Source: TPA_inf: Saccharomyces (lineage: Eukaryota). Taken from it: a DNA stretch of 64,000 bases. The notes beneath the pieces were generated by a model, which was not told the origin of the DNA, did no database searches, and worked only from the letters and a program-made list of their open reading frames with translations. The position numbers and the translations under genes were made by a program. The stretch covers positions 736,001-800,000 of the forward strand of contig BK006945.2 of assembly GCA_000146045.2 (NCBI GenBank). The letters are read 5' to 3'. Below, piece after piece: positions 23,459-28,137 of the stretch. Each line of letters begins with the position of its first letter. The first letter of the stretch is position 1.

Positions 23459-24241
<783 letters not shown>

Positions 24242-24354
24242 AGATACAAAAAATATAGTTGATGGTTCACTGGCCAAAAATGTATAAAAGAAAAATTTAT
24301 CTGTAAATAGTGATCGAAATAAAATAAGATAATAACTAAAGAATATATATGACT

Positions 24355-24753
24355 TTACTGTACAGATCTATAATTGAAAAATGACGAGAGGTCCTGTGAA
24401 AGAGTCTGCCTGTTCGCCATCTTCACACATTCAACCAATTCCCTGGTGCGCTTGGTTACTTCCATCAGGATATCTGCTAATTTTTGATAGAATCGTTTCT
24501 TCCCAAGCTTTGTGGAATCGCATCCATAAGTACACAATTCCGATAACTTTTGCGAGCAATCTGTGAGCCTTTCAATAATTTCTTTACAGTGCTCGCCTAA
24601 ATCCAGTTTAAAACTTTTTTGGACCATTGCTTTGGTAGTCATATCAATCACCGATTCCAAAATAGGAATAATCTCGATGGAATTTTGACATAATCTCGAA
24701 ACTGATCTTGCGGACTTGAACAATTTTGATTTAGAGGCTTGAACATCATTCAA
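24355..24753 (-). other. SPH1: Open 132-codon frame directly downstream of the SPH1 stop and overlapping it by 4 nt. It is likely the Spa2-like C-terminal portion of SPH1, separated from the body by a 1-nt frame change.
   Basis: The segment sits one nucleotide off frame from the upstream SPH1 frame. It stays open for about 145 codons in an AT-rich region. It ends 114 bp from the MRPL15 stop, a plausible convergent 3' spacing. Confidence 0.5.
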
Positions 24754-26342
24754 AATGCCCTGCCTGCCATAGGAAGAACAACCATTGATTTACTCTCAAC
24801 AAATTCGACGAGGTTATTTATGTTAGCGTTGTGCGTGGTTGAGTTGACATCAGAATTATTCAAGTTTTCTTCTGAAGTAGATATTCTTAATCCAAGACCA
24901 GAGTTGGGAGCAAATTTCTGCACTTTCTCTCTGAATTTCCTCATTTTGGTCACGGTTGGCGAGTAAAGTACGTCTGCAGCTGGCGGAATATTTGCATACG
25001 GCTTCGCCGTTTCTGCCACTGGTTTAGTGATAACTTTCTTCGGAGGTGATGCCTGATAATCCTGCCGAAATTTACCAATTAGCGGCAATGTGTTACCTTG
25101 AGGACTTGGACTTCTCGAGTTCGAGACAACTTTCAGAGGCAAACCTTCTCGCGGAGATGGCTCACTCGTAATTCTTGAAGAATTCTTAGTGTTTTTTAAC
25201 GGCGACACAGACGCTAAGTTTGTTTCTCCAGATGTATTATTTCGTACCTTCCCACTCTCTCGAATAGAAGATTCAGATTTTTCTATGATGGAAATTGATG
25301 GCGATGCTACAACCACTGGCATGTCCGATTTTTTTGTAATGGGCTTACCAGAGGATGGAAAACTAACAGCAGTACTACCGCTATCACCCAGAGATGATAT
25401 ATCCTTACCGTTTTTCTCATTTTTCACTTTTTCAATAATCTTCAACGGTTTCATACCTGCCTCGATATCACTGAGTTCTCCTTCATTGCGTGATATATCA
25501 TCACGTGAGGTGGATTTGATCTTCACAATCTGAGCAATATTGCAGAACGCAAAAATCACTTCCGAAATAGATGATTGAGCTACAATTCGTGGTATTAGGT
25601 CCCCATATGTGAGAAAATATCTTGTTGAAGTGATAGCATGAGATAAAGCACTCTTTAAGTATACTATTTCGTTTTCTAAAGAACTTTGCAGTGAAACTGA
25701 TGATAGGACAGGTAAGAGATCGCCTATCAACTTTGCTATCTTAATTATAGTCTCAAGCAGAATCGGCAGGCGTGTGGTGGTGGTATCCACAGGATCAATT
25801 CGATGGAGCGTGTTTTGAAAATAAAGTGTAAATTGAGTTTTTAATTCTCGGAAGACTTCAATGGATATAATACCATTCACGCTCATAAAATCATCGTTTA
25901 TTTTGAAGGATTCAAATAATGTGTCATTTAAATAGAAATTTAGATCACCCTCGTCTAACCCATTGTTATGCGTCCCCATATCCAAATGATGTAAGTTTCT
26001 CCTTTCAATTTCCGTGAAAATATCAAGAATCAATTTATGGAACTTCGCGTCCTTCAATCGAGACAGTTTAGATTGTGCTTTACCTCTTTTCAGATCAAGA
26101 TCATTTAGTGATGCATCCGCACCCGAATCTGTCAATCTTTTCATCAATTCATCGTTGACATCAGTCGTCAGTTGCCAAAATTGTACATTCGACAATTTTG
26201 TCAGGTCTTTATTTCTATTTTGGCGGTTTTGGTTCCTTCTTCTATCATCTTCTGGTACAGAGGCCTCTATAATTCTTTTGAAATTCTTATAATCCGATAT
26301 AAGGTCTATGATTTGATCATTCGTTAATTCTGAGCTAATCAT
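24750..26342 (-). CDS. SPH1: Sph1, the Spa2-homologous polarity protein. This is the 530-aa main reading frame; see the finding about the downstream out-of-frame segment at 24355..24753.
   Basis: ATG at 26342. The N-terminal Spa2-homology domain is present (MISSELTNDQIIDLISDYKNFKRIIEASVPEDDRRRNQ...). A second open frame of 132 codons follows immediately. Confidence 0.8.
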   Translation of the reverse strand: MISSELTNDQIIDLISDYKNFKRIIEASVPEDDRRRNQNRQNRNKDLTKLSNVQFWQLTTDVNDELMKRLTDSGADASLNDLDLKRGKAQSKLSRLKDAKFHKLILDIFTEIERRNLHHLDMGTHNNGLDEGDLNFYLNDTLFESFKINDDFMSVNGIISIEVFRELKTQFTLYFQNTLHRIDPVDTTTTRLPILLETIIKIAKLIGDLLPVLSSVSLQSSLENEIVYLKSALSHAITSTRYFLTYGDLIPRIVAQSSISEVIFAFCNIAQIVKIKSTSRDDISRNEGELSDIEAGMKPLKIIEKVKNEKNGKDISSLGDSGSTAVSFPSSGKPITKKSDMPVVVASPSISIIEKSESSIRESGKVRNNTSGETNLASVSPLKNTKNSSRITSEPSPREGLPLKVVSNSRSPSPQGNTLPLIGKFRQDYQASPPKKVITKPVAETAKPYANIPPAADVLYSPTVTKMRKFREKVQKFAPNSGLGLRISTSEENLNNSDVNSTTHNANINNLVEFVESKSMVVLPMAGRAF

Positions 26343-26574: not shown

Positions 26575-28137
26575 CTAACGTAAAAATCCCTTCTTCTTTG
26601 TAGGGACGGGGGAGTGGTTAACATTGGGAGAAGCACTATTTATTGAAAGTTCTAGCTGTTTTTTCTTGTCCTCCAAAGCTTTTAATTGTTTAGTTAATTT
26701 TTCCTTCATTTCTTTATGTCTAGCAAACAATTCAGTTTCTGATTTTTGTAGTTTTTTCTCCTTTTCGGAAACTTTTTGTTGGAAAACTGTTTTCATTTCA
26801 ATTTCTAGTTTGGCTAGTTTTGCCTCATGTAAAGTTTTTTCTTCTTGTTGTTTAGATATTGGATCGAACTCTTTGAAAACTGAATTATCTTGCTTAATAC
26901 CAAGTTTTGCCAATTTAGAAGACCTGTAGTTTTCGTATAGTATCTTGCTTGTCCTTTCCTTTAATTCCTCCATGAATTGCTTGATCAATAAATTTTTCAA
27001 AAGGTTGAAATCAGAGTGGTTGTCATTGTCCACTTCGATCACCCCCCATGGATAGGAACGGCCTCTCACTTGATTACCACTGTAGTTCTCTACAATATCG
27101 TTGGAACCAATAACAGCATAAGGTAAACTACTAAATAGTCTTTCGGATAAATGGCTATTTTCTGCATCATCGTTGGAATAAATTGGAGGCTTGAACAGCT
27201 CGATATTAGATTGGATTAACTGGTTCATAATGGTCTTCTTGAAACTTAAGATCTCTTCATCAGTTAAGATGTCAGATTTAGCAATGACAGGAATCAAGTT
27301 ACATTTTTCATATACAGATTGCATAAACTTCAGGTCCAGGGGCTTTAAGTAATGTCCTGTAGGTTCAATGAAATAAAGACATGCATGGATTCTTTTATCG
27401 TTTATTGAATGTCTGTTGATTTTGTTCTCCGCATCCAAGTATTGATCAAAACGAGAGTCAATCTCCTTAATGATCGGGTCCCATGATTTTTGATCATTAT
27501 TTAAAAAATCACCAAATCCTTCAGTATCGATCACGTTCAAATTCAGTTTAACACCATTTTCTTCAATAACCGACTCATATGACTTAATTTTGACCTTGTG
27601 CCTTTGTTCTTGTGATTGGTTCTCGTGACCCTCGCCCTGACCCTCCTCTTCTTCCTGATCATTTGCAAGTTCCTCCTCGTAATCTTTCACTAAATTGGCC
27701 TCAATATCATCATTATTAAATAAAGTTTTCATTAAAGTTGTCTTACCAATACCATCAGGGCCGACACATAGGAGATTGAAACTGAATCCGTTCTTTATGG
27801 ACCTTCTGTGCCATTGCTTGGGCAAATTAGCAAACCCTACATAACCATTGATTTGACGACGAATGAACTTAATCTCCGGTTGGTCAGGCAGAACTTGACC
27901 CTTTTCGCTCTGAGAGGAGGTGATGCCCATACCGAGGCCGGGTTCCACCTTTACATCGGATTCAGCTGCCTCAAATCTCTCGCTGTCGTCATTTTGCGTA
28001 CCGTTCGTGTACTGCGAGTCCACTCCATCATGATCCTGCGACTCTTGTTTGATCTGAACATCATTGAATTGATCATGCTGACGCTCTTCTTGTTCCGGGT
28101 CCTGCTTAATGGACACTTGTTCCTCCTTTAAACTCAT
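26575..28137 (-). CDS. CDC3: Septin Cdc3, 520 aa.
   Basis: ATG at 28137. Septin GTPase motifs GIGKTTLMKTLF (G1) and DTEGFGD, followed by a C-terminal coiled coil. Confidence 0.95.
   Translation of the reverse strand: MSLKEEQVSIKQDPEQEERQHDQFNDVQIKQESQDHDGVDSQYTNGTQNDDSERFEAAESDVKVEPGLGMGITSSQSEKGQVLPDQPEIKFIRRQINGYVGFANLPKQWHRRSIKNGFSFNLLCVGPDGIGKTTLMKTLFNNDDIEANLVKDYEEELANDQEEEEGQGEGHENQSQEQRHKVKIKSYESVIEENGVKLNLNVIDTEGFGDFLNNDQKSWDPIIKEIDSRFDQYLDAENKINRHSINDKRIHACLYFIEPTGHYLKPLDLKFMQSVYEKCNLIPVIAKSDILTDEEILSFKKTIMNQLIQSNIELFKPPIYSNDDAENSHLSERLFSSLPYAVIGSNDIVENYSGNQVRGRSYPWGVIEVDNDNHSDFNLLKNLLIKQFMEELKERTSKILYENYRSSKLAKLGIKQDNSVFKEFDPISKQQEEKTLHEAKLAKLEIEMKTVFQQKVSEKEKKLQKSETELFARHKEMKEKLTKQLKALEDKKKQLELSINSASPNVNHSPVPTKKKGFLR

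Follow-up and report, generated by a model that had tools for sequence, protein, structure and literature searches.

The 64,000-nucleotide stretch of Saccharomyces DNA analysed here, referred to throughout as the window (GenBank assembly GCA_000146045.2, contig BK006945.2, positions 736,001 to 800,000), carries on its minus strand a copy of the polarity gene SPH1 (YLR313C) whose reading frame ends early, with a long open frame lying directly downstream in another register. The gene is identified as SPH1 because its neighbours are CDC3 and MRPL15 (Table 1), a gene order also found at all of the S. cerevisiae, S. mikatae, S. uvarum, and other-relative loci examined. We consider it very likely that the window carries a truncating SPH1 allele of the S288C lineage, in which a recent insertion of the dinucleotide GG strands an intact tail downstream of a premature stop codon.

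Table 1. Features of the SPH1 locus, in window coordinates.
Feature	Position	Strand	Description and source
SPH1 (YLR313C) open reading frame (ORF) as read	24750..26342	-	530 codons, ATG at 26342, TGA 24752-24750; ORF scan
SPH1 out-of-frame tail	24355..24789	-	144 open codons plus TAA 24357-24355; stranded behind premature stop
Derived 2-bp insertion GG	24763..24764	-	shifts frame, ATGGCA[GG]CAGGGCATTTTGA; DNA alignments
CAG replacing stop codon	24394..24396	-	derived stop-loss, T to C at 24396, +13 codons QDLSSFFNYRSVQ
GIT_SHD (Spa2 homology domain) repeat, best-scoring	25995..26072	-	Sph1 residues 91-116; Pfam PF08518
TATATA element	24344..24349	-	only one downstream of premature stop, just past tail stop; motif scan
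CDC3 (520-aa septin)	26575..28137	-	SPH1 neighbour
MRPL15 (253-aa RNase III-like mitochondrial ribosomal protein)	23480..24241	+	SPH1 neighbour

The two SPH1 frames are offset by one nucleotide, such that a +1 or -2 change would join them. The tail frame runs for 132 codons from a TTG at 24753 (ORF 24355..24753, minus strand), with 12 more open codons upstream before closure by a TAA at 24792-24790, and since the overlap between the frames is 13 codons long, any lesion that joins them must fall within 24750-24789. At the local base composition, which gives a stop probability of 0.066 per codon, the chance of a stop-free run of 144 codons is about 5e-5, with shuffled 64-kb windows containing 0.25 open runs of this length over all six frames. 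The tail is furthermore coding-like in its G+C fraction (0.384), compared with 0.386 in the main SPH1 ORF and 0.22–0.23 in the flanking spacers. Both frames had been described in the original prediction, made from the letters of the window alone, with a main frame of 530 codons stopping at 24750 and an offset frame of 132 codons from 24753; the approximately 145 stop-free codons reported there were counted here as 144, and the view that such a run exceeds chance agrees with the run probability and is settled by the homology of the tail to its orthologues.

The lesion separating the two frames is, as judged from DNA alignments, a derived 2-bp insertion at 24764-24763, just upstream of 24750-24760, where the window reads CCTATGGCA GG CAGGGCATTTTGAATG, or in short form ATGGCA[GG]CAGGGC. 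The insertion converts ...M-A-Q-G-I-L-N-D... to ...M-A-G-R-A-F-stop, with residues 1-526 of the 530-residue product being native and the final four (G-R-A-F) made by the frameshift. DNA alignment places the GG in the window and in four loci of other assemblies (L001-L004), with the site reading GCA-CAG, lacking the insertion, in L005 (661 amino acids), L006-L011 (648 amino acids), L012 (a related species), and L014 (S. mikatae). The 648-residue S. cerevisiae proteins run on across the junction (...VVLPMA-QGILNDVQASK...), and protein alignment shows S. uvarum, S. eubayanus, and two relatives to encode continuous proteins of 644-653 residues with ...PMVQGILSGIQ... at the same position. The GG is the only length difference between the window and the GG-less SPH1 alleles, and is considered derived because it is missing from the other alleles examined and from three other Saccharomyces species.

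A small indel breaking SPH1 had been anticipated, and this much stands; a single-base change at 24750-24760 does not, with the alignments giving the 2-bp GG at 24764-24763 in its place. Likewise, the functional protein had been put at ~662 residues, compared with 648 residues for the ancestral protein and 661 for the window haplotype once the GG is removed. The two alternatives that had been left, a truncating indel or a genuinely truncated reference allele, prove to be one fact, namely an S288C allele truncated by an indel. It had also been allowed that orthologues might end at the equivalent of 24750 and that the downstream frame might be unlike Spa2; no intact orthologue ends there, and the tail resembles the C-termini of Spa2 proteins.

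The truncated product recurs outside of the window. Its 530-residue sequence is that of RefSeq NP_013417.3 (Sph1p of S288C), residue for residue. CEN.PK113-7D and four AJV accessions have the identical protein, which occurs in 64 index blocks of the assembly collection, from which 24 contigs were read. Four independent loci encoding the 530-residue protein, two from NCBI and two from Logan run assemblies, match the window at 100% identity over 6,593 nt, and since the GG comes back with the same DNA in assemblies made independently, a sequencing error is not its source. The RefSeq match and this recurrence bear out the natural S288C-type truncating allele that had been thought plausible. Two longer forms are also on record, with 661 residues in UniProt Q06160.2 and GenBank AAB64516.2, and 648 residues in many natural isolates and Kyokai 7.

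The stranded tail is identified by its sequence matches as the C-terminal (GIT1_C) domain of the Spa2 family, in agreement with the Spa2-like C-terminal block suggested in the original prediction. It is collinear with, and 98% identical to, the C-terminus of the 648-residue Sph1 of other strains. The tail of the window on its own gives a borderline match to Pfam GIT1_C, just under the cut-off (24.2 bits against 25, E 4e-5), with the domain matched by all six of the orthologous Sph1 tails scanned (best E 1.8e-8). An exhaustive HMMER search of 1.84 billion representative proteins with a profile of the orthologous tails retrieved 170 proteins at E <= 1e-3 and 122 at E <= 1e-10, with values down to 1e-20, almost all of them matched at the last ~135 residues of proteins of 1,000-1,800 residues. 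Each of the four matches that were scanned has GIT_SHD at its N-terminus and GIT1_C at its C-terminus, which is the architecture of Spa2, and BLASTP aligns the tail to a Spa2-type protein of 1,467 residues with 31% identity over 91 residues (E 2e-9). The N-terminal counterpart lies in the main ORF, where Pfam PF08518 is matched in two stretches (E 8.5e-12, 44.9 bits against a cut-off of 21.1). The 530-residue Sph1 hence retains its Spa2 homology domain at the N-terminus along with the middle region, and is without the GIT1_C-type domain of ~120 residues.

Among species with an intact gene, the ratio of nonsynonymous to synonymous substitution rates (dN/dS) is 0.20-0.49 in the tail, 0.16-0.30 in the N-terminal 300 residues, and 0.38-0.55 in the middle region, with the value for the tail therefore indicating a constrained domain. 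An AlphaFold2 model of the tail consists of four long helices, with a predicted local distance difference test score (pLDDT) of 86 and a predicted template modelling score (pTM) of 0.83. The best Foldseek superpositions of this model include FAT domains (FAK, Pyk2, p130Cas) and the vinculin tail, with template modelling (TM) scores of 0.6-0.79, but also designed helical bundles; no match to the Protein Data Bank (PDB) was found at E <= 1e-3. The predicted fold is thus that of a generic four-helix bundle, which fits kinship to FAT-like domains without discriminating for or against it. A search of PDB sequences with the tail profile gave only insignificant matches to secretin and SipB (E >= 0.02), which were dismissed as chance. 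A word-indexed protein search with the same profile did not reach Spa2, and returned a single fragment, P0023 (185 residues, ENA, 17 member sequences), residues 41-185 of which are 95% identical to the tail; P0023 is presumably a piece produced by a gene caller where the tail, on some contigs or alleles, was called separately. No statement on the function of the Spa2 C-terminal domain was found in the literature examined.

In addition to the GG, the window differs from the 648-residue allele at four positions over 2.3 kb (26247, 26232, 24719, and 24396). At 24719 the window encodes F and the 648-residue allele Y, with the outgroups having F, hence the state of the window is ancestral. The sole derived change in the tail of the window besides the GG is the stop-loss at 24396, with the codon at 24396-24394 being TAG in the 648-residue allele and S. 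mikatae, TAA in the related species (L012), and one or other of these stops in all of the other alleles and species compared. Translation of the window without its GG gives, by exact-sequence look-up, precisely the 661-residue protein of Q06160.2 and AAB64516.2, and the loss of the ancestral stop by this haplotype (TAG to CAG at 24396) is the reason that a 661-residue protein persists in UniProt. The same protein is encoded by the Logan contig L005 (run ERR15089278; equivalent window 28842-23873), the single contig found to do so, which has the stop-loss and, apart from its absent GG, departs from the window at three SNPs (28796, 28524, and 27325). Because of these three extra SNPs, L005 is regarded as a related but distinct strain, and not as a corrected read of S288C. 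On its sequence, L005 represents the intermediate allele, a near-S288C haplotype without the insertion, and the order of events shown by these alleles is from 648 residues to 661 residues through the stop-loss, and from 661 to 530 residues through the insertion of GG.

We propose the following course of events, starting from SPH1 as the whole-genome-duplication paralogue of SPA2, the gene of the polarisome scaffold, an ohnologue relationship described previously (PMC4629796). The stop-loss from TAG to CAG at 24396 first lengthened Sph1 from 648 to 661 residues. The GG after codon 526 then shifted the frame, with translation ending four codons on at the TGA at 24752-24750, and the GIT1_C-type coding sequence has stayed intact in the other frame since the mutation is young. 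The age of the insertion accounts for the intactness of the tail, and no function is needed as an explanation. In the resulting messenger, the tail would now be untranslated 3' sequence, and the 530-residue Sph1 may keep at least partial function.

Several points weigh against this account. UniProt Q06160.2 and GenBank AAB64516.2 still show a continuous 661-residue protein for S288C, which means that curators at some stage took the frame break in SPH1 for an error. The GG in S288C has been seen in assemblies and records as opposed to read-level data, and the strain names attached to GG-carrying assemblies are limited to S288C and CEN.PK113-7D. Additionally, the untranslated state of the tail is deduced, with one indirect hint in its favour being that ribosome footprints gave at most low support for the 13-codon extension (PMC4494051).

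The records just named also speak for the first of the competing explanations, in which the GG is an error of sequencing or assembly and true S288C encodes the 661 residues of UniProt. Both records carry the label S288C, the Logan contig L005 encodes exactly this protein, and the reference behind two papers, of 2011 and 2015, had an SPH1 ORF running through codon 649 (PMC3240633, PMC4494051). However, the current RefSeq entry NP_013417.3 has 530 residues, the GG occurs in four loci from different projects and read sets, each matching the window without a difference over 6.6 kb, and the three further SNPs of L005 mark it as a different strain in place of a better read of S288C. The SPH1 ORF of the genome project was, moreover, already without the tail in 1997 (Arkowitz and Lowe, PMC2139937). 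An error is therefore very improbable, and the two readings differ in what they predict at the GG site in S288C-derived reads, with an error predicting GCACAGGG and a real allele predicting GCAGGCAGGG.

That the tail is expressed separately, by reinitiation or from an internal promoter, would make SPH1 a split gene as opposed to a truncated one. Gene callers do give products of 132, 95, or 90 residues here in other assemblies, and in-frame ATGs lie at tail codons 38, 43, 97, and 112. These products are however open frames only, with nothing further behind them, and a start at the first ATG, at codon 38, would lose the first helix and the start of the second helix of the predicted model. The split arrangement is no older than the GG insertion, leaving no time for a start signal to evolve. 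Reinitiation after an ORF of 530 codons is not expected in yeast, which likewise counts against a separate product, and we give this explanation very little credence.

Slightly less probable still is programmed -1 ribosomal frameshifting, or another form of recoding, that joins the two frames so that full-length Sph1 is made by design. At the stop codon the sequence is A-UUU-UGA, where the P-site tRNA-Phe on UUU, the last sense codon, might conceivably slip onto AUU at low frequency. Against recoding, the overlap is missing a slippery heptamer: of 15 heptamers scanned in register from 24795 to 24753, a span that takes in the 24789-24750 overlap, not one fits the canonical X XXY YYZ. The downstream RNA folds no better than shuffled sequence, with no stable fold in the 110 nt that follow (minimum free energy -17.8 kcal/mol, z = +0.35, 127 of 200 shuffles folding as well or better). 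Furthermore, the frame break is unconserved in all of the other alleles and species examined, with the disruptions in S. mikatae being different and multiple, and ribosome-footprint support for the extreme C-terminus is low at best (PMC4494051). Lastly, the reading of the downstream frame as a coincidence of AT-rich spacer, which takes its support from the 0.25 long open frames that arise by chance per shuffled window, is rejected on the 98% identity of the tail to the C-terminus of the 648-residue Sph1, the GIT1_C and Spa2 matches, and the coding-like G+C.

The truncating allele of the S288C lineage has a counterpart in S. mikatae IFO 1815 (L014:3043-3480, GCA_947241705.1), where SPH1 is annotated with 513 residues and stops ~14 codons upstream of the S288C site. 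Approximately 440 nt after this stop still align to the tail, in pieces that lie in all three frames and with two deletions, and the decayed tail has an in-frame stop within the conserved TDC(S/L)Q motif. The two S. mikatae copies, L014 and L015, are identical and may be from the same strain. Judged by these alignments, S. mikatae IFO 1815 lost the C-terminal domain of Sph1 independently and earlier, which hints that the domain is dispensable in some lineages. It is conceivable, though in our view unlikely, that loss of GIT1_C from Sph1 is recurrent and not merely accidental, reflecting ongoing subfunctionalisation of SPA2 and SPH1, possibly under selection; if true, Sph1 sheds its C-terminal interaction module in some lineages. 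A weaker variant of this doubtful proposal has low-level full-length Sph1 still being made in S288C by slippage at A-UUU-UGA.

The SPH1 truncation is already known as a recent allele of the laboratory lineage, with the frame difference published in 1997, and no new mechanism is involved. Arkowitz and Lowe (1997, PMC2139937) cloned SPH1 by PCR, obtaining a protein of 648 residues, and reported a frameshift and a subsequent stop codon, which are the two differences mapped here, with the frameshift revealing C-terminal homology to Spa2p (28% identity to the last 84 residues of that protein). A 2011 study listed SPH1 Q649TAG of strain 74-D694, by comparison with the reference, as a stop that inactivates the gene (PMC3240633); on present evidence, this is the ancestral stop codon. 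The table of the same paper gives a '23 amino acid truncation', with 661 less 648 being 13. In 2015, SPH1 was listed with a 13-residue C-terminal extension arising from a point mutation, with no footprints on the extension at first and low numbers under relaxed filters (PMC4494051). Weak footprints on these 13 codons are to be expected of a profiled strain in which the frame break precedes them, and this 'de novo C-terminus' lies behind the S288C frameshift and is probably untranslated there. The versions of the records, together with the papers of 1997, 2011, and 2015, suggest that the annotation went from a truncated protein (530 residues) to a 'repaired' one of 661 residues, and back to 530 residues.

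The 2014 reference-genome paper and its supplements make no mention of SPH1 or YLR313C, and our literature search found neither a mention of SPH1 as a quantitative trait locus or causal variant, nor an S288C phenotype attributed to the truncation. Measurable effects of deleting SPH1 have been described for laboratory strains (PMC3784387), and if these strains carry the 530-residue allele, truncated Sph1 retains activity and is not null.

In comparison with the 648-residue Sph1 (AF008236 of Arkowitz and Lowe, Kyokai 7, and natural isolates), the window has the same locus and synteny, ~98% protein identity, and the same tail save for one F/Y difference (24719), with the GG, giving a 530-residue product without the C-terminal domain, and the CAG at 24396 setting it apart. 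The 661-residue protein of Q06160.2 and AAB64516.2 is not encoded by the DNA of the window, and corresponds to the pre-insertion allele or to a curated 'repair'. Spa2p and mammalian GIT1/GIT2 share with Sph1 the GIT_SHD repeats in their N-terminal part and a helical GIT1_C domain in their C-terminal part. Sph1 differs from Spa2p in length (648 compared with about 1,000-1,800 residues) and in being without the long repeat region, and in the 530-residue allele the C-terminal domain is missing as well.

FLO8 and HAP1 are examples of natural frameshift or nonsense alleles of the S288C lineage. SPH1 resembles them in being a non-essential gene with a disabling or truncating mutation specific to the laboratory lineage and an otherwise intact remaining coding sequence. 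In contrast to FLO8 and HAP1, the SPH1 allele retains most of its protein (526 of 648 residues).

The value of the finding is mainly practical, the allele being scientifically a catalogued strain polymorphism. The databases disagree on Sph1, with 661 residues in UniProt Q06160 and 530 in RefSeq NP_013417.3, and most natural strains have 648. Domain maps, interaction data, and structure models of 'S288C Sph1' may consequently refer to a protein not produced by that strain, and C-terminal tags built on the 661-residue annotation would be out of frame in S288C-derived strains. The sph1 phenotypes observed in S288C backgrounds concern a C-terminally truncated protein, and need not be the same where the background has the 648-residue form. 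Additionally, the interpretations of Q649TAG (PMC3240633) and of the 13-residue C-terminus (PMC4494051) need to be re-read.

Two further observations concern the surroundings of the gene. TATATA is an efficiency element of yeast 3' ends, forming part of the polyadenylation signals, and the copy at 24349 may be the native 3'-end element of SPH1. Because the only TATATA sits past the stop codon of the tail, the S288C SPH1 mRNA probably carries the whole tail as an extended 3' untranslated region. Upstream, CDC3 is called with 513 residues in some assemblies and 520 residues in others (loci L001, L006, L009, and L011), a discrepancy that is attributed to the choice of start codon by gene callers because L001 is 100% identical to the window.

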